64,000 bases of DNA, from positions 137,558-201,557 of IMG/VR virus record IMGVR_UViG_3300021399_000102, one strand, 5' to 3'. The translations under genes were made by a program, and so were the position numbers. Positions 4,552 to 57,025 of the stretch are shown one piece after another. Numbering within the stretch: the stretch's first letter is position 1; every line of letters starts with the position of its first letter. Source of the DNA: a virus. Taxonomy: Duplodnaviria; Caudoviricetes. The notes below the pieces were generated by a model. The model was given only the letters and a program-made list of their open reading frames with translations. It ran no database searches and was not told the DNA's origin.

Positions 4552-5601
4552 ATGATTGACTTTGAGGAAGATATATTGGAGAACTCTGGAACTGGGGAAT
4601 TCGCGCCAACAAGGGATGAGGGACTTTGGGTCACTAAATACCGACCAAGGACATTGGAGCATTTTTGCCTTGACCCAAAGTTGAAGGCTCTATTTCAGAA
4701 GCAAATTGACGCAAATGACGTTCAGAACGTGTGTTTGGTTGGGGGTCCAGGAATTGGAAAGACAACTCTGGCCCTGATTCTGGCCAATTCAAGCAAGGAT
4801 TCTGACATATTGTTCGTGAGTTGCGCATCTGGCGAGGGCAAGGTGGAGTCAATCCAGTCAAAGATTATCCCATTCTGCCAAAGCGCATCGAGTGGTCGCA
4901 AGTTCGTGATATTGGACGAATTGGATTCAGCGTCAGCAACGCAAGCCAACTCCTTCCAAAAGGCTTTGAGGAACGTAGTGGAGGCATTCCCAGATTGCAG
5001 GTTCATTGCCACTGCAAACTATCAAACCAACATCATCGGGCCACTTTGCCCTTCAAGGCTTCCTCCCAAGATGTTGAGTTTCTCGGTGTCAGAGATGATT
5101 TCCAATCTTCTCTATATCCTTGGCGAAGAGAACATTGAGATTGTAAGCGAGGCGACAAAGACAAAGCAGTTCCTAGGTAGCCTCATCAAGTCCTACTACC
5201 CAGACATGCGTTCGGTTGTGGGTCAATTGCAAGCAGCTTGCGTTGGTGGGACATTGGATGTGGAGAACATCACCATCAACAACAAGGAGGCAATCAAGAA
5301 CGCATTGGCTCAATTCCTCTCGCTCGTAAAAGGAGCGGGAACGCCACTTGAAATGCGCAAGGCGTACAACAACGAGATTCTGGCGTTTGGAAACAATGGC
5401 AATCTTTCCAAGCTTTACTCACCACTTGGTCTCGCCGAGGAAATCTTGAACTACTTGATTGAAAATTACAACATAGATCCAGAGGACTTGATGGTACTCG
5501 TGGAGTACATCTACAAGATTGAGCATTCTGTGGATGGCGAGACCCAGTTCTTTGGGTTCTTGCTCAAGGTAAAGACAATCGACTTCAACAAAGGAGCATG
5601 A
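4552..5601 (+). CDS. clamp loader ATPase subunit (T4 gp44 / RFC small subunit-like)
   Basis: LWVTKYRP box, Walker A GGPGIGKTT, Walker B ILDELD, FIATAN, YYPDMRS. Confidence 0.92.
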   Translation: MIDFEEDILENSGTGEFAPTRDEGLWVTKYRPRTLEHFCLDPKLKALFQKQIDANDVQNVCLVGGPGIGKTTLALILANSSKDSDILFVSCASGEGKVESIQSKIIPFCQSASSGRKFVILDELDSASATQANSFQKALRNVVEAFPDCRFIATANYQTNIIGPLCPSRLPPKMLSFSVSEMISNLLYILGEENIEIVSEATKTKQFLGSLIKSYYPDMRSVVGQLQAACVGGTLDVENITINNKEAIKNALAQFLSLVKGAGTPLEMRKAYNNEILAFGNNGNLSKLYSPLGLAEEILNYLIENYNIDPEDLMVLVEYIYKIEHSVDGETQFFGFLLKVKTIDFNKGA

Positions 5602-5602
5602 G

Positions 5603-5815
5603 ATGACGTTCGAGGAATACTACAATTATTGCAGAAGCAACAAGATTGACATTACAAAGTGGAAACTAAACACTCTCCATCAGAAGTTGATGGACAACAA
5701 CCAACCACTTACTGAATCTGAAGTATGCGCCAAGTTGTTTCTTGAAAAGGTTGGGTATGTCACTTGGCTATGGGACAATCCACCACAACCAATTGACGAC
5801 AAGGCAAAGAAATGA
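5603..5815 (+). CDS. hypothetical protein
   Basis: AAGGAG RBS, follows the clamp loader. Confidence 0.65.
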   Translation: MTFEEYYNYCRSNKIDITKWKLNTLHQKLMDNNQPLTESEVCAKLFLEKVGYVTWLWDNPPQPIDDKAKK

Positions 5816-45317: not shown

Positions 45318-45392
45318 TGGAGCCTCCACCCCGGGTCGAACGGGGACGAGCTGATTACAAATCAGCCATTCTACCATTACAATTATAGAGGC
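45318..45392 (-). tRNA. tRNA-Thr(UGU)
   Basis: GCTGA-tt TGT aa-TCAGC; CCA encoded. Confidence 0.9.
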
Positions 45393-45402
45393 AACTTGAA
45401 AC

Positions 45403-45477
45403 TGGTGGACCGCCGGGGAGTTCAACCCCGCTATCTGCCGTGCAAAGGCAGTGTAATAAGCGATATACGAGCAGCCC
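45403..45477 (-). tRNA. tRNA-Ala(UGC)
   Basis: CTGCC-tt TGC ac-GGCAG; G3:U70; ACCA. Confidence 0.85.
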
Positions 45478-45507
45478 ATTGTAAATCCTATTGTCAATTA
45501 TACGAAA

Positions 45508-46266
45508 TCATTTAAGCAGAAGTGAATCATTCAAAATTATTTTTCCATCTACAAAGTCTTTATATTGTTTCTCACCAATAAAGTAGATTCTTATTCCTGG
45601 ATTATTTTCCAAGACAAGACTCATCTTTTCCTTGTCTTTGTCTGAATAATAACCCTTTACTTCAATATACTCGTTTGTATCAGGTAAGTAGAAATCTGGA
45701 TTATAGGTCTTGCGTATTCCATCCTTAATGTATTTCAATGATTTGTTTCTGATCCAATTTATGTCGGTTGAAGTTAATTTGTTGGCAACATTCTCCTCCC
45801 AGTGACCCCGTACAGTATATTCAACCCCATCTAAGTTCTTCACTTTATACCAACCAACATCTTTGAATCCCCCTTTACACGAATCAAGATATTTAGAACG
45901 AATTTCAGAAAGTTTCTCTCGTGTTTCTTTGGTGTGAGTATGATGTAAAATTCTTTTTTGTGAGATTTTATTTTTCTCTGCTATTTGTCTTATTTTTATT
46001 GATGTCTCGCTGGTCAATCCCTTGTTCCATGCCATTCCCTTCTTAAATCCATGTTTCTCTTTTCTATGGATTTGCATTTCTTTTCTTGTACAGAAAATAC
46101 TTCCACAAATTGTACACTTCCAAGTGTGTTGTTGTCTATTCACATTAAAATTGCACACATGATGTTTGACTTGTTTGCCAATGAATACATGCCTACAATG
46201 ATTGGAGCAGAATCTTCCGCTCCCATATGTCCCATCATGGGGATTTCCACAATTCTCACATTTCAT
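45508..46266 (-). CDS. free-standing endonuclease (Zn fingers, NUMOD-like, PD-(D/E)XK)
   Basis: MKCENCG..GSGRFCS, C2H2 finger, AWNKGLT, YNPDFYL..YIEVKG. Confidence 0.8.
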   Translation of the reverse strand: MKCENCGNPHDGTYGSGRFCSNHCRHVFIGKQVKHHVCNFNVNRQQHTWKCTICGSIFCTRKEMQIHRKEKHGFKKGMAWNKGLTSETSIKIRQIAEKNKISQKRILHHTHTKETREKLSEIRSKYLDSCKGGFKDVGWYKVKNLDGVEYTVRGHWEENVANKLTSTDINWIRNKSLKYIKDGIRKTYNPDFYLPDTNEYIEVKGYYSDKDKEKMSLVLENNPGIRIYFIGEKQYKDFVDGKIILNDSLLLK

Positions 46267-46376
46267 AATTTTACCTTTAGTTTAATGTCGTTGTTCGCTC
46301 AACGACATCTTTATTTACAATTATACGAAAAGTTGTCCTCGAATCTGTTGGAGCGAACCATGAGTCCGAGGGCAAA
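46267..46376 (-). promoter_or_regulatory. kissing-loop leader motif, copy 1
   Basis: hairpin loop TTCGCT complementary to downstream hairpin loop AGCGAA; TATAAT-t-GTAAATA between them. Confidence 0.7.
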
Positions 46377-46378
46377 AT

Positions 46379-46471
46379 TGGTTGGGGAGGCGGGGCTCGA
46401 ACCCGCGATTGATGTAATCTCAAGAACCAACTACGTTTCTACGGCTTATAAGACCGCGTCGCTACTCCCCA
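46379..46471 (-). tRNA. atypical tRNA-Ile(UAU): no D arm, about 34 nt variable region
   Basis: acceptor TGGGGAG/CTCCCCA-ACCA, GCGGT-ct TAT aa-GCCGT, T arm GCGGG-TTCGAGC-CCCGC. Confidence 0.65.
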
Positions 46472-46496
46472 TTGAAATTAAAAGTTGAAGCCCAAG

Positions 46497-46752
46497 AAAT
46501 GGGTCAAATACATCGGTTTTCTTCCGAAGTGAAATCCCCATCTTCGCCGTTTAGACATTTCTGATTTATAACTCTTGGACTTCTGGGAGTTATACCCGGC
46601 GCGTTCAATCACTCCGCCACCATACCACAGGCTGCGATAGGGAGGGATTCAAACCCCCGGTCGAAGATTCGCCTTTCAGCAAAAGATAACACCCAACAGC
46701 AACCGGTTTGCGGTGGGTATTCTTCGACACCGAACACTGTTATCTCCCATTT
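46497..46752 (-). ncRNA. Y-RNA(YrlA)-like RNA with circularly permuted tRNA domain
   Basis: order T arm, closed acceptor stem, D arm (core 46596-46660); ends pair AAATGGG/CCCATTT. Confidence 0.55.
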
Positions 46753-46763
46753 AACTTGAAACC

Positions 46764-46840
46764 TGGAGCATCAGATGGAACTCGAATCCACAACCTCGTC
46801 CATGGCAAGGACGCGCTCTGACCAATTGAGCTACTGACGC
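46764..46840 (-). tRNA. tRNA-Gly(GCC)
   Basis: CGTCC-tt GCC at-GGACG; TCCA. Confidence 0.92.
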
Positions 46841-46922
46841 AAGATTGCCGTGCGATTTCACTGCCGACCGATGTGCCCGAAGCATCTATCATTCGCCCGA
46901 TCAAGCTTCAACACGGCAAAAG

Positions 46923-46997
46923 TGGATCGAATGATGGGTGCTGCTCCCACTTAATCCAACCTGGCAGATTGGTGTACTGCTGATGTACCACATTCGC
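46923..46997 (-). tRNA. tRNA-Gly(GCC), atypical T loop
   Basis: CCAAT-ct GCC ag-GTTGG; TCCA. Confidence 0.75.
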
Positions 46998-47004
46998 ATT
47001 AAAT

Positions 47005-47080
47005 TGGTGCGATGTGCCGGTGACGCTCCGGCCCGTTCAGCTTGGAAGGCTGACATCCTGCTAACATAAATGAACATCGC
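47005..47080 (-). tRNA. tRNA-Gly(UCC)
   Basis: TCAGC-ct TCC aa-GCTGA; CCA. Confidence 0.85.
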
Positions 47081-47119
47081 AAAAATCCTTAAACCATGAC
47101 GAAAGGGAAGCATTGAAAC

Positions 47120-47194
47120 TGGTTGTCCCGCCAGGATGTGCGCCTGGTCTAAGGGTATCAAAAACCCCTGTGCGGACTGATACACCACAGGACA
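47120..47194 (-). tRNA. tRNA-Gln(UUG)
   Basis: GGGGT-tt TTG at-ACCCT; U1-A72; CCA. Confidence 0.82.
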
Positions 47195-47884
47195 TACATT
47201 GAAATTGGGCAGGGTTTGCTTTTCCGGGGTCACCTGCGTTCTCCCCAACCGAAGACCCACGAGGGGCTTTTGATGTTTCTCGTTCGGCATCCACCTGGGG
47301 GATGGCGATACACGCAGTAGGCTACGCTGCTCCCTGGGTCTGCTGTTCCCCCAGCTCAGCCCAACACGTTCTTGGGACTTCACCAACGGTCGATTCGTCT
47401 ACGTCCTGTTGGCTTGCATATGGCGTTGTTCGTGATATCCCACAATATTGAACTCAAGCAACACGTCGGGATTCGGACCACGGTCTCCCCCCATACGAGA
47501 GGTATTCTGCCTTTTTGAACTATTCGTGTCTAATCCTCATGTGACGAACAACACCTAAAGAGGGAGTGTTTGCAGAGCAAGACTTCACCGGTAGCCACCA
47601 TCTTGCTTTTCGACTGCTGGGGTTTCTATCATTCACTCTTCCAGAATGCATCGAAACTAGGAACTTGCGCGTTAACCTACACACATCACATCCCCTGAAC
47701 ACACAACCCATATTGAAATTCTTGAAGCGGAGTTTGCTTGTGGATGCGTCTATAGCCACAGAGCCACCATGTTTACGGACCAGGAAAGAAGCTTTCTGAC
47801 CCCTGAATCCTATTTGTCCATTCATGACTGAACAACCCTCAGACGCTTATTATGTCTTCTCCGCACAATCTATCTGAGGGAAAT

Positions 47885-47960
47885 TGGTGTCCCAGACTTG
47901 AGTCGAACAAGCCACCTGATTCTTAGGAGGAATCCGCTCTTCCTGATGAGCTACTGGGAC
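47885..47960 (-). tRNA. tRNA-Arg(CCU)
   Basis: GATTC-ct CCT aa-GAATC; CCA. Confidence 0.92.
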
Positions 47961-48075
47961 ATTGAAATGCAGGAAGGAAGAAGAACGTAGTGGACTCGAA
48001 CCACCTCAGCCGTCGCATTCTCAATCAAGAGTGGGAACACCCATCCCAGATGTACGTTCTTGCTTCTCTCTCAAA

Positions 48076-48149
48076 TGGCGGGGTATCCGGGTGCTGCCCC
48101 CGGGACGCAAGTTAGACAGACTAACGTGATACTGTTTCACCAATACCCC
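48076..48149 (-). tRNA. tRNA-Asp(GUC)
   Basis: loop ct GTC ta, weak anticodon stem; GCCA. Confidence 0.75.
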
Positions 48150-48526
48150 CTTGAAATAGCAAGGTCTCATTTTTCAACCACTCGCCACCCATCCTACTCG
48201 GATTTTGAGATGTCTCCTGTACGGGGAGCCACGTATACTTTCGCTCGCCACTACTCGCGCACCGCCCATATTGGCGGCCTCTACTGTCCTTTCAGCCTTA
48301 GCCTTGTCCGTTGTATGAGACCCATATGTGAATCTGTTGCGTTCACGTGTTCTACGCAACTTCTGGCATGCCGAGGGGATGATCCACAATCCCCAAATCA
48401 AATCCATTCACTTGTCAAAGAACAACCTTTGTCTAATGCGCAAGCATTATTCAAAGAGCAATGTCTTTCCGGATGTTCTTGGACACATCCATCAAAGAGC
48501 AATAGCCATCAAAATTGGCATAGATA

Positions 48527-48555
48527 ATTATACAATACATCACGACCCAAGTAAA
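48527..48555 (-). promoter_or_regulatory. internal sigma70 promoter of the RNA array, followed by boxA-like sites
   Basis: TTTACT-N17-TATAAT; TGCTCTTTGA at 48492-48501 and 48451-48460; GTTCTTTGACAA at 48412-48423. Confidence 0.75.
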
Positions 48556-48573
48556 GGGAATTTTCAACAAAAA

Positions 48574-48651
48574 TGGTCTTCACGGAAGGAATCGAACCTT
48601 CGACCTCCACTATGTCAAAGTGGCACTCTTAACCTACTGAGCTACGCGAAG
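48574..48651 (-). tRNA. tRNA-Val(GAC)
   Basis: CCACT-tt GAC at-AGTGG; ACCA. Confidence 0.9.
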
Positions 48652-48653
48652 TT

Positions 48654-48728
48654 TGGTGGATGAGGAGAGAATCGGACTCCCAGCACATACCATGTGAAGG
48701 TATTGCTCTACCATTGAGCTACTCATCC
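48654..48728 (-). tRNA. tRNA-Val(CAC)
   Basis: ATACC-tt CAC at-GGTAT; ACCA. Confidence 0.9.
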
Positions 48729-48738
48729 ATATTGAAAT

Positions 48739-48815
48739 TGGGTTGTCTTGCTGGTTCTGCCCCAGCGATTTCCCCGTCCACAGCGGGGCGTCTTCACTAC
48801 TCGACCAAAGACAAC
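48739..48815 (-). tRNA. tRNA-His(GUG)
   Basis: CCCCG-ct GTG ga-CGGGG; G-1:C73; CCA. Confidence 0.85.
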
Positions 48816-48824
48816 ATCTAAATT

Positions 48825-48907
48825 CGGAGTGTGATAGATTTGCACTATCGGATGCTTTCACATCACAGATTTCCAATCTGACCCAATAACTACTCTGGCA
48901 ACACTCC
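48825..48907 (-). tRNA. tRNA-Ser(GGA)
   Basis: CAGA-tt GGA aa-TCTG, long variable arm, no encoded CCA. Confidence 0.82.
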
Positions 48908-48914
48908 ATAAATT

Positions 48915-49009
48915 CGGAGTTGGGTGGATTTGAACCACCACAGGGACTTTGACATCCCCTACTAACGGTTTAGCAAACCGTGGCCTTACCTGGTTAGGCT
49001 TACAACTCC
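48915..49009 (-). tRNA. tRNA-Ser(GCU)
   Basis: ACGGT-tt GCT aa-ACCGT, long variable arm, no encoded CCA. Confidence 0.88.
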
Positions 49010-49016
49010 ATAAAAG

Positions 49017-49105
49017 TGGAAGAGGGTATCCGATTCGGACGGATGGACGCTATTAACGCCACAGAGGTTCAAGCTCTGCTCAATAGACCACTCTGACAAC
49101 CCTCC
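49017..49105 (-). tRNA. tRNA-Ser(UGA)
   Basis: CAGAG-ct TGA ac-CTCTG, long variable arm. Confidence 0.85.
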
Positions 49106-49116
49106 ATTGAAATCTA

Positions 49117-49202
49117 CGGATGGAGCTGGACTTGCACCAACATGTGGCTTTCACCACCCTTGCTTTCGAGGCAAGACCTTTACTATTTAGGAGAATCCAT
49201 CC
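49117..49202 (-). tRNA. tRNA-Ser(CGA)
   Basis: CTTGC-ct CGA aa-GCAAG, long variable arm, no encoded CCA. Confidence 0.8.
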
Positions 49203-49776
49203 ATCTTGAAATTGAAAAGGAATATGGCGTTCCTGTTTCGCAAGGTTATGAGCCTTGAATACGACATGGACTCAGATGACTACTCGCTGTGGCTGGTCAC
49301 ATCTTCCGGAAGTTTTGCGGACTTGACTTTTTTAGTCCCGCCAGTTGGAGCATTGCTTTCGCACCACTTGTTGCTGTATCGCACAAGCATATTTCGTCAT
49401 TCAGGCTTGCCATCAAGCCTTGGCTTTTCTGCTACCCCCAGGGAGAGAAATGCCAACAAAGAGACATCGTTGAAATTGAACCAGAGACCAGAATTATTCG
49501 GCATGAACTTGCTTGGCATCGTCACACCAAGTATGTAGGTTCATACGTCAACCTTTAACGACTGCAAGAGTTGGACGTACACGAGGTTGCTATCCATTGG
49601 TACGTGTGGTCTTCTTCGGCGCTTATCTCTGTTCAGACCATCTTCATGCGAGTCTTATGACTGGAATGCGAATCCAATCAAAATGATGGAAGCAGTGGGA
49701 TTCGGGCCCACATTGGGGATTTCACCCATCCGCTTACCGAAGATTCCTTTCCTGTTCGGTTTCATGCTCCCATAAA

Positions 49777-49862
49777 TGGTCGGAGTGGAGGGATTTGAAC
49801 CCCCGAGGCTTTCGCATCTGCTCCCAAAGCAGACCCGGTACCAGGCTACGGTCTACACTCCG
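49777..49862 (-). tRNA. tRNA-Pro(UGG)
   Basis: TCTGC-tt TGG ga-GCAGA; C1-G72; ACCA; small extra variable hairpin. Confidence 0.9.
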
Positions 49863-49875
49863 ATGTAAATTGTAA

Positions 49876-50291
49876 ATGAACCATCCGACTGGGAGTTGCC
49901 CCACCTTGCGTCTAAACAAACGCTGCGCAAGCAACCATCGCAGGACATCCCACGAATTTTCACCATATCCCATTTATCTGCATCCACCTGCAACGGATGT
50001 ACCCCTCCACTTTTATTGTGTGAATCATTGGGATCCGCCAAGGCAGATCGTTATCTAGGACTTTCCATTGCTCATGGGTAGCCTTTCTTTCGGGTATGCA
50101 CCTTCGTTTATACGAAGCATCTCCTCTTCTCGGAGAAACCTTCGCAATCAGCATGAGTTTTGCTACTCTACTCACCACTATAGTGCGCCCATTCACTCAT
50201 TAAGGGGCTTGGTTTAACTTACTTTCCATTGTGGTGTAAGGCTGCCGTTGAAGCATTAAGCATACTGGGTTTCACTCCCCATCTGGTTCAT
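49876..50291 (-). ncRNA. candidate large structured RNA (~415 nt)
   Basis: closing helix ATGAACCA/TGGTTCAT, many hairpins, CAATGGAAAGT twice, no credible ORF, directly after a promoter and boxA. Confidence 0.5.
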
Positions 50292-50371
50292 AAAGTCGAT
50301 TGTCAAAGAGCAATCTTTGTCTATGCGAACTTGTCGCACATCAAAGATCTACGTTCAAATGAACGTATTCA

Positions 50372-50400
50372 ATTATACGCGCAATTGAACGTATTGTAAA
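50372..50400 (-). promoter_or_regulatory. internal sigma70 promoter plus boxA
   Basis: TTTACA-N17-TATAAT; TGCTCTTTGACAA at 50300-50312. Confidence 0.75.
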
Positions 50401-50402
50401 GT

Positions 50403-50477
50403 TGGCATCCCTGCACGGTAACGCTCCGTGGTCTGGTGGATGAAAACCACCCGATCTTACTTTTAATCTACAGGGAC
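50403..50477 (-). tRNA. tRNA-Glu(UUC)
   Basis: GGTGG-tt TTC at-CCACC; GCCA. Confidence 0.85.
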
Positions 50478-50521
50478 ATTGAAAGAGCAATGGTTGTTTG
50501 ATTTGCAAACACACATTGAAA

Positions 50522-50595
50522 TGGCAGCTCTGCACGGTATCGCGCCGTGTTCTCCTGCGTGAGAGGCAGGCGATCTGCTTCTAATCTACAGAGCC
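50522..50595 (-). tRNA. tRNA-Glu(CUC)
   Basis: CCTGC-ct CTC ac-GCAGG; GCCA. Confidence 0.85.
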
Positions 50596-50677
50596 ATTGA
50601 AATTGAAATCCAATTAAACGACATCGCTCTTTATTTGATGTGGCAATCACTGCCACATGGCAGTTTATTTTGTTTCG

Positions 50678-50761
50678 GACAGAGCCTTGCCAACCTCTTA
50701 ACCATCATTGGGAACGATGGATGGAGTCGAACCATCATGTTTGATTGCATAACCAAACGTC
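50678..50761 (-). ncRNA. second permuted tRNA-like (T-AS-D) domain, Y-RNA-like
   Basis: GATGG-TTCGACT-CCATC, CATCGTT-ccc-AATGATG, GAG-gttggcaagg-CTC. Confidence 0.55.
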
Positions 50762-50908
50762 TTGAAAATTGCTTGGCAATATTCAACCAATGTTCCAAGG
50801 GGGAATCGGACCCGTTGTTGCCTATCGTCATACTTCTCACCAGAGTAAGAACATCAATCATGGAATTGCCTTAACCATCTTGCAAGTTGGATAAATGAAC
50901 AAGTCATT

Positions 50909-50987
50909 TGGAGAGCGAGGTGGGAATCGAACCCACATTATCGCGGTTTTGCAGACCGCGCCCAGTGCCAATATCGAGAACTCGCCC
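50909..50987 (-). tRNA. tRNA-Cys(GCA)
   Basis: GCGGT-ct GCA aa-ACCGC; TCCA. Confidence 0.9.
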
Positions 50988-51111
50988 AAATTGACAAGCG
51001 ACACCCGGTCTGGTTTGACGGGGCAGAGCTGCGCAGATTGCACCCCTCCAGCATCTCGCCGTGCGCAATGGCGCGTTCTGATTGAACTACGTATGTGTCG
51101 CAAATTATCTA

Positions 51112-51795
51112 TTAAATTATACGGCCTTTTCTCCAACCATTTGGAATTGGATTTGTTTTTAGAATGACTTTGTTCTCACCAGTTAAATCATTACAAATCC
51201 ACATCTTTCCAAATTGATTGTTGTTTCTACCTTGTTTCTTTTCTGACATTTTTCTACGAGATTCGTTTGAATGATGCTTACCATACATGGGGTTTAATTC
51301 GCCCGTTTTAGGATGACTTTTGGCGTATTGTTTATTTGCCATTGAATTCTTTTTACGCCATTCTTCATATTTCTCAGGATTATTTTCTTTCAACCGTTTA
51401 GCCCACCCTTTTGATGGATATTCACCCGTTTCTTCAAAAATCCTTTTACATGTTTCAGAAAGTGGCTTAAAATTTCCACTATGATTTAATCCAGTTGTGT
51501 TCAAATAATCCCAACCACCTTGACCACCAAGTTTGATGTTATAGACATCATTACGATTCAAAAAATCTTCATTTACGAGTTCAGCTTCCTTTGCGTTCAT
51601 TTCCTCTTGTGAAGAACACTCAAATAGAATCTCTCGCTTGAAATTCTGTTCGCCATACTTCTCTATGGCGCGTTGGATTAGAATGCCCGAACCCAAATAT
51701 CCATCATCCAGGTTGTCCGTTTCATGTTTGCCAATGTAGATTTTACCATTGACCAGATTAGTGGTCTTGTAAACCAAATAATGTTTCTTCTTCAT
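51112..51795 (-). CDS. GIY-YIG (Seg-like) homing endonuclease with NUMOD3
   Basis: YLVYKTTNLVNGKIYIGKH..DGYLGSG..YNIKLGG; NPMYGKHHSNESRRKMSE. Confidence 0.92.
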   Translation of the reverse strand: MKKKHYLVYKTTNLVNGKIYIGKHETDNLDDGYLGSGILIQRAIEKYGEQNFKREILFECSSQEEMNAKEAELVNEDFLNRNDVYNIKLGGQGGWDYLNTTGLNHSGNFKPLSETCKRIFEETGEYPSKGWAKRLKENNPEKYEEWRKKNSMANKQYAKSHPKTGELNPMYGKHHSNESRRKMSEKKQGRNNNQFGKMWICNDLTGENKVILKTNPIPNGWRKGRII

Positions 51796-51910
51796 GTTCT
51801 TTTACCTTTAGATTTACGAGGTTGTTTGCTCCAACCTCATTACTGTTTACAATTATACTCAGATTAAGTCCCCACATCCCTGTTGGGAGCAAACCATGAA
51901 GGAGGGGGAC
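51796..51910 (-). promoter_or_regulatory. kissing-loop leader motif, copy 2
   Basis: loop TTTGCTC complementary to loop GAGCAAA; TATAAT-t-GTAAACA between. Confidence 0.7.
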
Positions 51911-51915
51911 AAATT

Positions 51916-51988
51916 CACGGTCTGGTGGAGTCGAACCACCCTCTTCGGATTTGGAGTCCGAGGCACTCTCCATGAAGACCAAGACCGT
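51916..51988 (-). tRNA. tRNA-Trp(CCA)
   Basis: TCGGA-ct CCA aa-TCCGA; no encoded CCA tail. Confidence 0.85.
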
Positions 51989-51995
51989 ATTGAAA

Positions 51996-52071
51996 TGGCA
52001 CTCCCACTCAGATTCCAACTGAGAATACAGAGTTCGTAGCCCTGGAGTTTATGCGATTAGCTTATGGGAGC
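51996..52071 (-). tRNA. tRNA-Arg(ACG)
   Basis: CAGGG-ct ACG aa-CTCTG; GCCA. Confidence 0.85.
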
Positions 52072-52081
52072 ATTCAAGAAA

Positions 52082-52155
52082 TGGCTGGGGATGATGGTAT
52101 TGCGCCACCTCTAAAAGGTTCAGAGCCTTCTGTACCACTTTTATACGAATCCCCA
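52082..52155 (-). tRNA. tRNA-Gln(CUG)
   Basis: GAAGG-ct CTG aa-CCTTT; TGGGGAT/ATCCCCA-GCCA. Confidence 0.88.
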
Positions 52156-52549
52156 ATTGTTAAAAGAGCTGAGCGTTTTTGCCGATGTTTGGTTATCTAT
52201 TCATTGATATCCATACATTGGGGAGTGGAGGATGTACACCATCAAAGCTCGTGTACCGACCCATGAAACACACAAACCACCTGGTCTTATGGTGATTCCA
52301 GGAACCAATCAATCCCACAATATCTGAATAAGTGGAGTCAAATCGTAAATTGAAATTGGCGGCAACGTCCGATTCTCACGGCACAAACAGCTCCCTGCTG
52401 CCATGCTCATATGGTTTCCCTATCTAGAGTCAAGAAACCACGTCCCTTGTTTCGGAGCAAGGCGAATTCAATTCCTTTGACTCCTTCGTGGATTACATCA
52501 TATTGCCAAAATTGGTGGAAGTGTCGCACAAGGGGACACGTACCATAAA

Positions 52550-52623
52550 TGGTGGACACGTCCGGTAACGCTCCGGAGTCTCCTCAATGCCATTGAGGTG
52601 TTCTACTATTGAACTAGCGGCCC
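52550..52623 (-). tRNA. tRNA-Ala(GGC)
   Basis: CCTCA-at GGC at-TGAGG; ACCA. Confidence 0.85.
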
Positions 52624-52625
52624 AT

Positions 52626-52699
52626 TGGTGGAGTCGTCGAGAATCGAACTCGGATCTCTTGAATGCGAATCAAGCGTTCTACCACTGAACTAACGCCCC
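52626..52699 (-). tRNA. tRNA-Ala(CGC)
   Basis: CTTGA-tt CGC at-TCAAG; ACCA. Confidence 0.88.
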
Positions 52700-52943
52700 A
52701 TTGTGAAATCTTGGCGTGAGAGGGAGTCGAACCCTCGTCTCGTTCATTGCCATTGAAATGTCCCGGCCGTAGAACCAATGACATTGAGTTGTTCTGCCGT
52801 TGAACTATCACCCCATCTTGAAATTGGTTGGAACAACCCTACCTTCAGTATCATGAACTTTGACCCGTTTCAATCAAGAAACTGTCGGTCCAATAGGCTT
52901 GCGTTCCCAAACAGGAAATCTTCACGTCGTCATTCCAAAATTA

Positions 52944-53019
52944 TGGTGGAAGAGGATGGGATCGAACCATCACCTTTGGATTTTCAGTCCATAGTACACA
53001 CCAAGTATACGACCCTTCC
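52944..53019 (-). tRNA. tRNA-Phe(GAA)
   Basis: TGGA-ct GAA aa-TCCA; ACCA. Confidence 0.88.
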
Positions 53020-53155
53020 ATTATGAAATTGGTGGCTGTCTTGTGGTTATCTACTCCACTGTCTCCCCAACGGGCGATGCATCAACCCATAACGTCAGGG
53101 AACCCGTTTTACGCACGGGACAAGACCAATTACTTGCGTATCAAGCCATTGAAAC

Positions 53156-53242
53156 TGGTTGTGAGGGTTGGAATTGCACCAACGTTGTTTCTAATGTGGC
53201 GGGTTTACAGCCCGCTGCGTTCGCTACTACGCTAACCCCACA
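53156..53242 (-). tRNA. tRNA-Tyr(GUA)
   Basis: GCGGG-ct GTA aa-CCCGC; long variable region. Confidence 0.88.
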
Positions 53243-53251
53243 ATAAAATCT

Positions 53252-53339
53252 TGGTTGGAGAGGTGGGACTCGAACCCACGACAGAATTACCATGCGGGTG
53301 TATCAGACCCGTGCGTTACACCAACTTCGCCACTCTCCA
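53252..53339 (-). tRNA. tRNA-Ile(GAU) with long variable region
   Basis: CGGGT-ct GAT ac-ACCCG; ACCA. Confidence 0.85.
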
Positions 53340-53359
53340 ATTGAAATCTCGAAATCGTT

Positions 53360-53434
53360 TGGTGTCGGATGGTGGAGTCGAACCACCTTATAACGCCGTA
53401 TGAAAGCGCACCATGACCGTTCTGGCAACCCGAC
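53360..53434 (-). tRNA. tRNA-Met or Ile2 (CAU)
   Basis: GCGCT-tt CAT ac-GGCGT; ACCA. Confidence 0.82.
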
Positions 53435-53437
53435 ATT

Positions 53438-53512
53438 TGGAGCTGGAAATTGCACTCGCAGCAATGTTATCCGTCTTACGAGGACGGCGCCTGACTTCTC
53501 AGCCATTCCAGC
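53438..53512 (-). tRNA. tRNA-Thr(CGU)
   Basis: CCGTC-ct CGT aa-GACGG. Confidence 0.85.
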
Positions 53513-53649
53513 ATACTTGAAAGGTTGCTTGCATTCACATGAGTGGTTGTTGGTTTGTTCTCCAACGAGGAATCGGGAACTCATGAAGAAAGAACCATAC
53601 CGAAGAACATCTTCGTGCAATGCAAGGCTTGAAATTCATCGTGAAATCT

Positions 53650-53724
53650 TGGAGCTGACGGAAGAACTCGCATCTTCGTGTTCCGTCATACCAAGACGGC
53701 ACCTAACTTCTCAGTCACATCAGC
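53650..53724 (-). tRNA. tRNA-Thr(GGU)
   Basis: CCGTC-tt GGT at-GACGG. Confidence 0.85.
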
Positions 53725-53734
53725 ATTGAATCGT

Positions 53735-53813
53735 TGGTAGGGATGATGGGATTCGGACCCATACTGTACACGCCCTGAACGTGTCGCCTGCTGCCAAATT
53801 GGGCTACATCCCC
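53735..53813 (-). tRNA. tRNA-Leu(CAG), short variable loop
   Basis: ACACG-tt CAG gg-CGTGT; ACCA. Confidence 0.88.
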
Positions 53814-53825
53814 ATTTGTCGAAGT

Positions 53826-53911
53826 TGGTCGCCAAGGAGGGACTTGAACCCTCACGTACTTTCGTACAATAGATTTTGAGTCTATCGCGGCTGCCATTAC
53901 ACCACTTGGCG
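53826..53911 (-). tRNA. tRNA-Leu(CAA)
   Basis: ATAGA-ct CAA aa-TCTAT; long variable arm. Confidence 0.9.
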
Positions 53912-53912
53912 C

Positions 53913-53989
53913 TGGTCCTGGTGGAGGGAGTCGAACCCACACTACACGGAGTTTGAAACCGCCGGCTCTGCCAATTGGTCTACACCAGG
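53913..53989 (-). tRNA. tRNA-Leu(CAA), short variable loop
   Basis: GCGGT-tt CAA ac-TCCGT by alignment to the neighbouring Leu(CAG). Confidence 0.72.
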
Positions 53990-54000
53990 ATTCTTGAAAT

Positions 54001-54093
54001 TGGTGCGGGTGAGAGGACTTGAACCTCCACGGTACTATGATTTCCCAACAGCCCCTCAAGCTGTCGCGTACTGCCAAATTTCGCCACACCCGC
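54001..54093 (-). tRNA. tRNA-Leu(GAG)
   Basis: ACAGC-tt GAG gg-GCTGT. Confidence 0.9.
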
Positions 54094-54280
54094 ATTTGAA
54101 GTCGCCGGACTAACTGCTCTATAAACAAGGTTCGCAATGTCCTTGCTGGTGAAGAGACTAACACCACGTCACCACGCAATGCGTTCATCCAGTAAAAATG
54201 GTACTTCCACTCGGAACTGCCCCGAGATATAGCCGGTAAGAGCGGCTGGTCTTCTAGTTGACTTATGGAAGCATTGAAGA

Positions 54281-54355
54281 TGGTACTCCGCGCGGGAGTC
54301 AAACCCGCAACCCAGGGTTTAAGAGACCCTTGCGCTATCATTGCGCCAGCGGAGC
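54281..54355 (-). tRNA. tRNA-Lys(CUU)
   Basis: AGGGT-ct CTT aa-ACCCT. Confidence 0.9.
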
Positions 54356-54362
54356 ATTGAAA

Positions 54363-55082
54363 TTATTCATCTATGAACTCTTTGGCAATCCGAATATACT
54401 TCTTTGGATTGTGGAATACATCTTTCCACTTGAGTCTCAACAATTGCCATCCTTCATCCTTTAAGAGTTCATTCTTTCTCAAATCCCTTTCTATTTGCTC
54501 TGGGAATATTTCGTGCTGCTTGCCATCAATCTCAATGCACTTCTTCTTGTGTTCCCAGGCAAAGTCCAACGAGAACCTATGAAACGGTCTTTCACGCACA
54601 TAGTTCTTGTCAGCAAATTCGTTCTCAATCACTTGCATGAACCACTTCTCGGGCCATGAAGGTTCATTGTTCCATCTGCACTCGCCAATGTTGTGCGCAC
54701 GGCCTTCTGCGTGAGCTTTCTTCATTGACTCAGAAATCTTCTTTCGCATTTCATCCGGGAGATGCTTTCCTTCCCAATGGAACTTTACCAATCCTTCTGA
54801 AATTCGTTGTTTAAGCGTTTCAACACCTTTGGCAATTCTTGGGTCTATGTCTTTCGTCAAACCCTTATTCCAACATCGTTTCGATTTGTGTGCTTCATGT
54901 TTGTGCTTATACATTAAGCTACGAGACTTAAATTCTTCGCCACATTGGTCGCATATCCAAGGTGTGCCTTTCTGGTGTTTTCGTTCGCAAGAGTGAGCAT
55001 ATGCTCCTCTACATTCCTTGGAGCAGAATCTTCCGCTTCCATACGAGCCATCATGCTCGTTTCCACATACTTCGCATTTCAT
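54363..55082 (-). CDS. free-standing endonuclease (Zn fingers, NUMOD3, DUF559/Vsr-like nuclease domain)
   Basis: MKCEVCG..GSGRFCS (same N-terminus as 45508..46266), GKHLPDEMRKKISES, LDFAW..IEIDGKQH..RDLRKNELLKDEGWQLLR. Confidence 0.82.
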   Translation of the reverse strand: MKCEVCGNEHDGSYGSGRFCSKECRGAYAHSCERKHQKGTPWICDQCGEEFKSRSLMYKHKHEAHKSKRCWNKGLTKDIDPRIAKGVETLKQRISEGLVKFHWEGKHLPDEMRKKISESMKKAHAEGRAHNIGECRWNNEPSWPEKWFMQVIENEFADKNYVRERPFHRFSLDFAWEHKKKCIEIDGKQHEIFPEQIERDLRKNELLKDEGWQLLRLKWKDVFHNPKKYIRIAKEFIDE

Positions 55083-55195
55083 AATTTTTGCCTTTAGTTT
55101 AGAGACGTTATTTACGGTAACGTCATCTCTATTTACAATTATACGAAAATTTGTCCCAGACCTATGTTGGCCGTAAACCATGATGGAATGGGACA
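55083..55195 (-). promoter_or_regulatory. kissing-loop leader motif, copy 3
   Basis: loop TTTACGG complementary to loop CCGTAAA; TATAAT-t-GTAAATA between. Confidence 0.7.
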
Positions 55196-55200
55196 TTAAG

Positions 55201-55478
55201 TGGCTGATGAGGAGGGACTCGAACCCCCAGTTGCTTTCGCCACGGATTACCTGCTACATTGGTTTCCCATTGTAGTCTGGACTATCTCATCATCCCATTT
55301 CTGGGAGCGTCCTCTATAGTCTCTACGCATTTACGCATTTCTGCGATTTAGTTCTGTGATTAGCATGTTGCATACGCAATTTAGCCTCTCCAGAGTTAGG
55401 GACGTGTTTCAATCAAGGTTGCCCTTGAAAGCTGCCATATAGGACAGTCCGCTGCCTTACCATTCGGCTCACTCATCA
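55201..55478 (-). tRNA. tRNA-Asn(GUU) interrupted by a group I intron (exons 55444-55478 and 55201-55249)
   Basis: spliced arm GCGGA-ct GT^T aa-TCCGT; U1-A72, G73, CCA. Confidence 0.88.
55250..55443 (-). ncRNA. group I intron (194 nt, no ORF)
   Basis: 5' exon ends in U paired to G in P1 (CTGT^C / GGCAG); R element GTAGAGACTATA, S element GATAGTCC (P7); terminal G. Confidence 0.88.
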
Positions 55479-55659
55479 TCAAATCGTTCTAAATTGACGT
55501 GTTGGGAAGGATTCGGACCTTCATAGGGCATTATGCTAACGAATGTTTCCATGCTTGGAAACCACCTCTCTAATGTCCAATCGGCGGCCTTTGCCGATGC
55601 ATAGCCCGTTCTATGCTGCTTCAACACACGAAACTTGTTTCAGCACTATTGAAATTCGC

Positions 55660-55731
55660 TGGGATGTGTTGGAATCGAACCAACCTAGTCACCCCTTATC
55701 ATAGGGCCGCCACACCAGTAGCTTACATCCT
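55660..55731 (-). tRNA. tRNA-Ile(GAU), divergent second copy
   Basis: GCCCT-at GAT aa-GGGGT; canonical T arm; no CCA. Confidence 0.65.
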
Positions 55732-56479
55732 TTATAGCATGTCTATTGTGCTTCGCCGCACGACCTTACACCCACGTCTGGGCATTTTGCGCAAAATTGA
55801 AAAGGTCTTTCTCAAAGGCAATCTATCATATTCTCGGCGCCAACTGGTCAATTACTCCAAATGGCGTTGTTCCTCAATATGAGGTGTGGGGTTTCTTTCC
55901 ACGGTTGTTCCAAACCAATCGCAGGCTACTTGTGGGTTTTCTGCCCAATCCGTGCTTCTTACACCATAGAGCAATTCGCCTTGCCTTTGATTCAATTGTG
56001 TTCCCCTTGGTCAACCACTCGCTGCCCATCGTCTCGCTAAAGATCTGACGCCGAAGCCTTGTCCGTTGCAGGGGAAATCTTGAAATTGTAGAAGTGGCTG
56101 GGCCCGAGGGTCATACCTATCATAAGAGAGTTGCATCCGGATCCACATTGCTCTCCCATATTTCAGCTGGGTCTCTCAGTCATGCCACATTGAAATTGAA
56201 CAAGGCACTATTTGGATGACAAGTATCCAAAAGATTCCCAGCTCCGAACCGGGCGTTTCAATAACTAAGGCATAGATTGTCCAACTTGTCATAATGGTCA
56301 TCTACACCCATAGCGGAGGCGTTTATCTCCTCAATCTTGTCGTGCCGTCAACTACCTAACCACCAAAAGATGGGCTAAGTTTTCCGTGAGTTACCTCCGA
56401 CGATTGGCTCGTTGACAGAGCCTGCCAATCAGATTGGGTTTCAGCAATTAGAAAACCAACGAGATTGGGTGTATGAAAT

Positions 56480-56554
56480 TGGTAGCGGGAATTGGAGTCG
56501 AACCAACCATCACCGGGGTATGAACCCAGTATGCAACCGCTGCACCGTCCCGCA
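56480..56554 (-). tRNA. initiator-like tRNA-fMet(CAU)
   Basis: 1:72 mismatch, GGG/CCC anticodon stem, tt CAT ac; ACCA. Confidence 0.85.
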
Positions 56555-56895
56555 ATCTTGAAAATGGTGTTGCTGAGGGAGTGCGCTACGCTCCAATGTT
56601 GGGTATTCCTTCACACTTGGCAAATTCTCCACCCCATCGGGCCCTATGAAATGGCGTCTTCCAAGATTCACTGTGAAGTTTAGTTGTATTTCCCAACTCC
56701 CTCATGCAAGAGGGTATGTTGCTTTCCATCACTCGCAACGAAATTGAATAGCCATTCGCTTTAGACCCAAGGTTCCCTAATGGGTTTCCTCCAAGGGCTG
56801 ACTCGCGTATGATGTTCCTTCCTCAGGAACAGTCTTTACTACATCGTCATTCAATTGTCAAAGATCCTATTGTCGCTTTCACAAACAACACCCAT

Positions 56896-56928
56896 AGTAT
56901 ATCACATCTCGGTGTTCTTGTAAAGGGG
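56896..56928 (-). promoter_or_regulatory. sigma70 promoter of the RNA array plus boxA
   Basis: CCCCC-TTTACA-N17-TATACT with extended TG; GATCTTTGACAA at 56855-56866. Confidence 0.8.
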
Positions 56929-56948
56929 GTTTCCAAACTTTTTCAGTT

Positions 56949-57025
56949 TGGTCACGGTGACGAGACTCGAACTCGCATCCCACGGTTTAAAAGACCGTTG
57001 CAGAAACCTATTTTGCTACACCGTG
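56949..57025 (-). tRNA. tRNA-Lys(UUU)
   Basis: ACGGT-ct TTT aa-ACCGT; ACCA. Confidence 0.9.

Follow-up and report, generated by a model that had tools for sequence, protein, structure and literature searches.

Conserved RNAs with tRNA-like ends among the tRNA genes of a TAG-recoded metagenomic phage

In RNAs C and D of phage T4, the two ends pair with each other and the 3′ end is of the CCA type. They are made from the T4 tRNA region and their role is still unexplained (PMC3014915, PMC9697503). By analogy, they appear to be the closest described case to the elements reported here, a set of expanded tRNA-like RNAs (c1 to c8) in the tRNA array of a metagenomic phage (IMG/VR virus record IMGVR_UViG_3300021399_000102). 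Also related in kind are the allo-tRNAs of Mukai et al., which were found in phages and in rumen Clostridia. These resemble tRNA-Sec, with a longer acceptor stem, a shorter T stem, a long variable arm and G73, and have been proposed to be suppressors or regulatory RNAs (PMC5389517). In their 8/4 or 9/3 form the acceptor branch has 12 bp, and the total length is about 90 nt (PMC5389517).

The window, which is the whole stretch of DNA that was studied, comprises the last 64 kb of the 201.5-kb record (positions 137,558 to 201,557), for which CheckV gives a completeness of 48%. Its tRNA array extends over window positions 45318-57025 (about 12 kb) on the minus strand and holds about 40 tRNA genes; 32 were called by ARAGORN, and Rfam added 6 further matches to the tRNA model. 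A first-pass annotation, made from the letters of the window, had listed the elements. Each of them was found again by sequence reading and folding, on the minus strand and with the terminal helix and ends that had been described.

For comparison, we used three complete relatives of 414-434 kb from IMG/VR (G1, G2 and G3), found together with fragments through their DnaB-type helicase (75-77% protein identity); the genome that holds the window is referred to as W. A homologous minus-strand array is present in all three, and so are in-frame TAGs. Scanning metagenomes with a 25-base pattern yielded a single new variant, the contig L200. Exact 14-mer scans of IMG/VR returned mostly chance matches plus one duplicate contig, the neighbouring methylase turned up nothing as a probe for relatives, and GenBank phages include no close relative of this phage. 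The next relatives by helicase share only 38% identity and are fragmentary.

Four of the elements, c1, c5, c6 and c8, are genuine RNA genes, conserved in structure to a degree beyond chance. In these, loops and junctions are invariant while the stems change. Element c1 (52357..52507, minus strand) is a 151-nt RNA which occurs once each in G1, G2, G3 and L200, with identities of 95%, 91%, 72% and about 92%, respectively. The order of its arms is that of a class II tRNA. In the consensus fold, an acceptor-like stem of 7-8 bp encloses a 50-nt P2/P3 arm, a 10-bp P4 with an invariant 11-nt loop, and a P5 arm of the V type (20 nt, with 6 bp and an 8-nt loop), while a T-arm-like hairpin (CCG / UGAGAAU / CGG) abuts the 3′ acceptor strand. 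Its loop follows the T-loop pattern at positions 54, 57 and 58, with positions 55-56 being variable. The 3′ end is G-CCA in W and A-CCA in G3. When the five sequences are aligned, 96.5% of the cells are paired. Both partners differ at eight pairs, four of which belong to P4, two to P5 and one each to P3 and the acceptor, compared to 0-1 such pairs in slid controls. The P4 loop (GACUCUAGAUA, 52421..52431, minus strand) is identical in all five sequences, while the stem beneath it covaries at those four pairs.

Two further sequences beside c1 are conserved. Positions 52230-52330 (minus strand) downstream of it (GGUUCCUGGAAUCACCAUAAGACCAGGUGG...) are conserved in G1 and L200. A 32-nt minihelix ending in ACCA (52513..52544, minus strand) is located between a tRNA(GGC)-like gene and c1; by eye and unscored, it has a counterpart with changed stem bases at the same position in G1, G2 and G3.

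Element c6 (53030..53147, minus strand) is an RNA of 118 nt with cloverleaf order, found in G1, G2, G3 and L200 at 86-89% identity. It consists of a 4-bp terminal helix with A-CCA, a D-like arm, a 5-bp arm with the loop GCGUAAA (GUGUAAA in G1), a branched 'variable' arm of 40 nt and a hairpin that is not a T-loop. Double changes occur at four pairs versus none in slid controls, and 99.3% of the cells are paired. Like c1, it is present as one copy in every genome of the clade. Element c5 (52825..52938, minus strand, 114 nt) has a 10-bp terminal helix with CCA. Its homolog in G2 occupies another position in the array, at 77% identity, and shows five compensatory pairs around a 30-nt core block that is unchanged. 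The tRNA-shaped c8 (47980..48062, minus strand), which shares 76% identity over the core with its G2 homolog, comprises a terminal stem of 9 bp, a hairpin whose loop UGGGUGU is conserved, and a canonical T arm. A short variable hairpin substitutes for the anticodon arm, and its 5-6-nt loop differs in sequence between the homologs. Seven pairs are compensatory, five of them in the terminal stem, which differs in sequence yet pairs; the D-like loop and the T arm are conserved.

Element c3 (56565..56739, minus strand, 175 nt) is probably a genuine RNA family as well. It has a terminal helix of about 8 bp (GUUGCGAG/CUCAGCAAC) with ACCA, and is flanked by a sigma70-like promoter (56924-56896) on its upstream side and, immediately downstream, by tRNA-Met. 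It occurs at the same place in G1, with 94% identity inside a stretch of 80% overall identity; the changes are one-sided only and none is informative. G2 has an unrelated element bearing a T arm at this position. The leader between the promoter and c3 (56740-56850, minus strand) is probably another structured RNA, since it is conserved in G2 with a covarying hairpin (GUUCC...GGAAC).

The first-pass annotation had treated the elements as one class of expanded tRNA-like RNAs. The shared architecture is confirmed but a common homology is not. The set c1-c8 is heterogeneous, a class by architecture and not by homology: searches with covariance models of c1 and c6 yielded no paralog of either. Self-BLAST of the array, too, showed that c1-c8 are not paralogous to one another. 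In the related arrays, c1, c5, c6 and c8 have homologs with compensatory changes, and c2 and c7 have no homolog. The c1 and c6 models (R1, R2) had no match in five more distant relatives, which is uninformative as these are fragmentary. In Rfam, no family matched c1, c5 or c6 at E<=10, tRNA included, or c2, c3, c7 or c8 at E<=1. Only c4 exceeds the gathering threshold of the tRNA model RF00005 (29 bits), with 41.7 bits. With introns allowed, ARAGORN mislabels some relatives as 'intron-containing tRNAs'. A further RNA with tRNA ends that is absent from the window, located at 4978-5154 of the G1 array (L041) and at L200:1347-1535, is labelled as an intron-containing tRNA-Gly and has an insert of about 100 nt in the variable region.

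Placement and punctuation of the elements are those of tRNAs. Their boundaries show U-1/G+1 at the 5′ end and NCCA followed by AUUU(CAA). Nearly every unit of the array is followed by the spacer (CC)A-AUUUCAA, and CAAUUUCAA (for example at 52350..52358, minus strand) follows tRNAs and odd RNAs alike; 10 of its 12 matches in the window are on the minus strand of the array, with 2.4 expected in the whole window, and on the array strand it is enriched 10-fold. Among 124 array tRNAs from W and its relatives, 101 encode CCA, and the bases A-U-U-U that follow are each found in 56-75%. There are four sigma70-like promoter matches on the array strand, and the span from c1 to c6 contains on this strand one weak terminator-like match only (56253-56237). 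A T-type hairpin stacks with the terminal helix in c1, c2 and c8. RNase P gauges its substrates by the acceptor/T stack and prefers RCCA, and it also cleaves non-tRNA substrates that have an acceptor-like helix and RCCA (PMC11143913, PMC12710915). As RNase P accepts such ends and the elements carry ends of the tRNA type, we infer that they may be released by the same enzymes as tRNAs.

The explanation that we favour, and consider reasonably probable, is that the conserved elements are stable small RNAs which are processed via the tRNA pathway, use the top half of a tRNA as a handle, and act in some way other than decoding. We also think it fairly likely that c1, c5, c6 and c8, and probably c3, represent independent families of structured small RNAs. 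These five elements would be co-transcribed with the tRNAs from sigma70-like promoters. RNase P would cut at the U-1/G+1 junction on the acceptor-like helix, which a T-arm-like hairpin accompanies where present, and an endonuclease would cleave the AUUU spacer, followed by trimming to NCCA or its repair. The retained top half would then serve as a processing and stability handle, and the active part, which would bind a putative partner, would be the rebuilt interior, where invariant loops sit on stems that covary. Maturation by RNase P with a CCA end, stability, co-transcription and a role in trans are thus predictions from the sequence.

Several points weigh against this explanation. Only 4-5 distinct sequences are available per family. 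The shuffle control, in which 0 of 500 shuffles equalled the real c1 alignment, overstates the significance among related sequences, and most of the double changes in c1 stem from one lineage, G3. The NCCA end is not always kept: c1 ends with GACA in G2, the G2 copy of c5 has no immediate NCCA, and CCA is not encoded in c8 and c2. With a terminal helix of 4 bp and no T-loop, c6 should be a weaker substrate of RNase P. The phage is uncultured, its elements are known as sequences alone, and 'cargo', when used for the rebuilt interior, is a label rather than a function.

Recoding of TAG in this phage bears on c1. When TAG is read through, the longest open reading frames (ORFs) of the record increase from 819 aa to 3622, 2619, 1829 and 1704 aa. 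The interrupted genes are structural and encode a T4 gp15-like protein and a tail-fibre-like protein that has Listeria-Bacteroides repeats. When the gp15-like gene is aligned across the four genomes, CAA or CAG is found opposite TAG in 8 of 13 TAG columns, and thus the phage most likely reads TAG as Gln. The tetranucleotide CTAG is depleted 18-fold in the whole record (43 observed, 787 expected), and the base before in-frame TAG codons is A in 69% but C in only 4%. Despite this depletion, CUCUAGAU is kept unchanged in all five c1 sequences. When the P4 loop is closed by an A-U pair, a 7-nt loop CU-CUA-GA results, which has the shape of an amber anticodon loop and contains the palindrome UCUAGA. 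No other YU-CUA-RN hairpin is conserved across the four arrays. Loop-loop dimerisation, which is possible because UCUAGA is palindromic, would explain this retention equally well as anticodon mimicry. The possibility that the c1 loop pairs with in-frame TAG codons and also with their neighbouring bases was ruled out, as these codons occur as A-TAG-A rather than C-TAG-A.

None of the arrays contains a canonical tRNA(CUA), which had prompted us to consider c1 as the missing amber suppressor. This was ruled out, since stand-alone tRNA(CUA) genes exist outside the array in W, G1, G2 and G3, and c1 is thus dispensable for TAG decoding. In W, the gene is found at 114.7 kb of the genome on the minus strand (L202) and codes for a 79-nt tRNA with U1-A72, G73 and CUA in the anticodon loop. 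The promoter context TATAATTGAA upstream of it is shared by the G1 gene (L192), which was recovered by a whole-record Rfam tRNA search. The G3 gene (L203) is an ortholog of that in W (81% identity), and G2 has another one (L205), called by ARAGORN. The genes of W and G3 are missed by ARAGORN and Rfam alike, and those of G1 and G2 are unrelated sequences in this role. Each of the four is preceded by a promoter of the TATAATTGAA type. Similarly, c6 had been considered as the only Tyr tRNA of G2 and G3, which was ruled out because both have Tyr genes that ARAGORN misses. As tRNA-Tyr(GUA) is present in all four genomes, beside c6 with its GUA loop, c6 is dispensable for decoding.

The expectation that the elements are not normal decoders has thus held up: c1, c5 and c6 have no tRNA score in Rfam, the arms are abnormal, and dedicated suppressor and Tyr tRNAs exist. 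A standard anticodon arm (5-bp stem, 7-nt loop, U33, purine at 37) is not found in c1, c6, c8 or c2, and a decoding role of c1, c5, c6 and c8 is unlikely. It could still be argued that some of them are unusual working tRNAs, with c1 as an expanded amber suppressor in which one 12-bp P4 helix replaces the D stem and the anticodon stem, and c6 as an acceptor of Tyr whose variable arm is very large. In favour of this, TAG is a sense codon in the genome, most likely for Gln; c1 has U33, CUA, a purine at 37, a T loop of the T54/A58 type and an 11-bp acceptor/T stack, and c6 has A73, CCA and GUA. However, a promoter-driven tRNA(CUA) outside the array and a tRNA-Tyr occur in each of the four genomes. 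In c1, the 'anticodon' stem (10-12 bp) is double the usual length and an arm of 50 nt takes the place of the D arm; in c6, position 33 is C in four of five sequences, the acceptor has 4 bp and a T loop is missing. Neither scores as a tRNA. We regard such a function as quite improbable, and c1 as a decoding-competent suppressor is the less likely view of its loop. A phage Glu/Gln-tRNA synthetase or a CCA-adding enzyme was not found in the four genomes. That phages counter tRNA-cleaving defences with their tRNA arrays is an established idea, into which decoys would fit: RNAs that mimic parts of tRNAs and soak up host anticodon nucleases, synthetases or modification enzymes, with the amber-type loop of c1 and the Tyr-type loop of c6 as bait. 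The loop CU-CUA-GA resembles those of the phages' own suppressor tRNAs (CUCUAAA, CUCUAAC, CCCUAAC), it is invariant in the face of CTAG avoidance, and GUA is displayed by c6 beside real tRNA-Tyr genes. On the other hand, the nuclease or binding protein is hypothetical, c5 and c8 have no anticodon-like loop, the palindrome is as consistent with dimerisation, and a YU-CUA-RN loop is estimated to arise by chance among some 30 hairpins in roughly 5%. Decoys, which would be a specific function inside our preferred explanation, are therefore a doubtful candidate, though the least doubtful of the alternatives. In a more specific and unlikely version, c1 might be a bait for, or a regulator of, the amber-decoding system of this TAG-recoded phage, an abundant early RNA displaying the suppressor-type loop on a long stem. 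One possible route would be to sequester a host factor that binds tRNA(CUA) or attacks it, such as an anticodon nuclease which leaves the host unharmed but kills recoded phages; the other would be to restrain premature read-through of TAG. We would give either route little credence.

In the explanation that we favour, elements c4, c7 and c2 are lineage-specific by-products, functional or not. Element c4 (52712..52814, minus strand, 103 nt) is a paralog of the tRNA-Ala family into which 32 nt have been inserted alongside the anticodon arm. They include a second, partial copy of this arm and the spacer-like AUUUCAAU; the long stem of c4 arises because the two copies pair. Aligned with W 52553-52622 and with the syntenic 74-nt genes of G1 and G2, c4 shows one 32-nt gap. 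Its kin are a small family of genes with G3:U70 and the anticodon GGC, plus tRNA-Ala(CGC). As the insertion is seen in the W genome only, we read it as a probable recombination product specific to this genome. Element c7 (50998..51101, minus strand, 104 nt), closed by GCGACAC/GUGUCGC, is located directly 3′ of a GIY-YIG homing-endonuclease ORF (51112-51795) and has no homolog in G1, G2 or G3. It appears to have come with the endonuclease cassette, because tRNA-Trp and tRNA-Cys, which flank it, are adjacent in G1 and G2 and 927 nt apart in W. Element c2 (55495..55627, minus strand) is a 133-nt orphan with a closing helix GUGUUG/CAACAC, two 6-bp hairpins, a long middle arm and a good T arm (GAAGG-UCCGAAU-CCUUC). 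Its loop AAAGGCC does not fit a standard anticodon arm. Its fold has a z-score of -2.3, with 5 of 200 shuffles equally good; no homolog was found in G1-G3, and the c6 covariance model does not match it.

For these three elements, decay of tRNA genes or recombination scars without a function of their own are an alternative, and the first-pass annotation had named pseudogene-like drift as the outcome that would speak against its proposal. Drift is refuted for c1, c5, c6 and c8 by their compensatory changes and invariant loops, and by c1 and c6 being single-copy in all genomes of the clade. In contrast, c2 and c7 cannot be distinguished from drift because they lack homologs in the relatives, nor can c4, because its insertion is absent from them. 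The array holds three homing endonucleases and a group I intron, and recombination would be at home there, but for the set as a whole decay is an unlikely explanation. A different thought is that the elements are partners of Ro60 (TROVE), as Y-RNA-like RNAs with a tRNA-like module resembling that of bacterial YrlA. All three complete relatives encode a TROVE protein, Y RNAs of the YrlA type mimic tRNA, and there is a weak YrlA match of 22 bits at 52647-52766. Yet this match, far below the RF02553 threshold of 69 bits, straddles two adjacent tRNA-type genes, the free ends of YrlA sit in the Ro-binding stem rather than in an acceptor stem, and each of the three relatives has a better Y RNA candidate immediately 3′ of its TROVE gene, which leaves this reading with very little probability. 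Least probable of all, and hardly tenable, is the first-pass suggestion of mini-tmRNAs, ribosome rescue RNAs that resemble transfer-messenger RNA (tmRNA). Acceptor stem, T arm and CCA of c1 do resemble the tRNA-like domain of tmRNA; against this, ARAGORN detects no tag frame in the window, the sole match to permuted tmRNA has 13 bits and is located elsewhere than c1, none of the candidates matches tmRNA in Rfam, and full tmRNAs coexist with c1 in the arrays of G1 (tag GNDYSMAA, L041) and G3 (tag GNDYRMAA, L043). No tmRNA gene was found in the window or in the G2 array.

The TROVE/Ro60 gene adjoins a GroEL-like chaperonin gene in the relatives (L289:3871-5523 in G1; L290 and L291 in G2 and G3) and is absent from the incomplete record that holds the window. 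The candidate Y RNA downstream of it is a conserved RNA of about 85 nt (approximately 5556-5650 in G1) with a sigma70-like promoter of its own, paired ends AGCCAG/CUGGCU and a U tail. It is not in Rfam, and Rfam gave no Y RNA match around the TROVE genes of the relatives.

Within the array, homing-endonuclease-type ORFs are also found at 45508-46266 and, of the DUF559 type, at 54363-55196. The latter is just downstream of a group I intron, and outside of it. This intron of about 194 nt (33 bits in Rfam, below threshold) interrupts a tRNA at 55201-55478 (minus strand), which ARAGORN labels Thr(GGU). With a P1 pairing CUGU/GCAG that has a U.G at the splice site, together with an omega-G, the loop would instead be CUGUUAA, which would mean Asn(GUU), an amino acid otherwise absent from this array. 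Five ORF-poor gaps of 325-750 nt (47195-47519, 48150-48573, 49204-49776, 49863-50402 and 55732-56479, minus strand) have no match in Rfam, ROOL and GOLLD included. Two of the five share the motifs CAACGGACAAGGCU and GCGAGUGGUUGA, and a repeated UUGCUCUUUGACAA motif in array gaps probably represents promoter -35 regions. Several working-looking tRNAs with non-standard T or D loops escape ARAGORN, both in the window (48735-48815 and 52553-52622, minus strand) and in the G2 and G3 arrays. Among them are a tRNA-His(GUG) with the T loop GGCAGAA, the G3:U70 genes with the anticodon GGC and the T loop AGCGUUA, and the tRNA-Tyr genes of G2 and G3.

A phage tRNA array is commonly taken as a kit for codon supply or anti-defence, and whatever lies between its tRNAs is disregarded. 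In the array described here, no fewer than four and probably five unrelated RNA families are subject to purifying selection on their structure and share the punctuation of the tRNAs. This suggests that the tRNA-processing pathway may serve giant phages as a general route of small-RNA production, with families that tRNA finders miss or mislabel and with c1 as a defined candidate that would link such RNAs to stop-codon recoding. A literature search found no description of such arrays beyond the T4 RNAs. The families of c1, c5, c6 and c8 are new and uncatalogued in Rfam, within a kind that is known but neglected.

The use of a tRNA-like module as a processing or stability handle is known from the tRNA-miRNA encoded RNAs of murine gammaherpesvirus 68 (MHV68) and from engineered tRNA scaffolds. 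There, as proposed here, the module serves only as a handle for an attached RNA, but the viral RNAs belong to a eukaryotic RNA polymerase III/RNase Z context, and their cargo is 3′ of the tRNA-like part and not built into it. The tRNA-like domain of tmRNA and YrlA are likewise non-decoding RNAs that reuse the acceptor/T module of tRNAs. Unlike tmRNA, the elements described here have neither a tag ORF nor pseudoknots and score far below the Rfam threshold; unlike YrlA, with its permuted topology and Ro-binding stem, they reach 22 bits at best with RF02553. With allo-tRNAs, c1 shares an acceptor of 7-8 bp, a T stem of 3-4 bp, the 20-nt variable-type arm and G73. It falls outside their definition because of its double-length stem and its acceptor/T stack of 11 bp (8/3 or 7/4) rather than 12; it is 151 nt long, has the 10-12-bp 'anticodon' stem and a 50-nt arm instead of the D arm, and allo-tRNAs work in translation. 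The amber suppressor tRNAs of code-15 phages (Borges et al., 10.1101/2021.08.26.457843) belong to the same phage biology and resemble c1 in its loop CU-CUA-GA, but in these four phages the genuine suppressors are encoded apart from c1, by genes of 70-90 nt with promoters of their own. This leaves T4 RNAs C and D (species 1 and 2; rnaC, rnaD). They, too, are small non-tRNA RNAs inside a phage tRNA cluster, and the elements described here lie within such a cluster on the tRNA strand. The likeness is one of location and type, and similarity in sequence is not expected. The present case differs in that at least five unrelated families occur in one array, that of a TAG-recoded metagenomic jumbo phage, and that several elements keep the cloverleaf order with a T arm. 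If our explanation is true, T4 RNAs C and D, a puzzle for half a century, would be one case of a common phenomenon.

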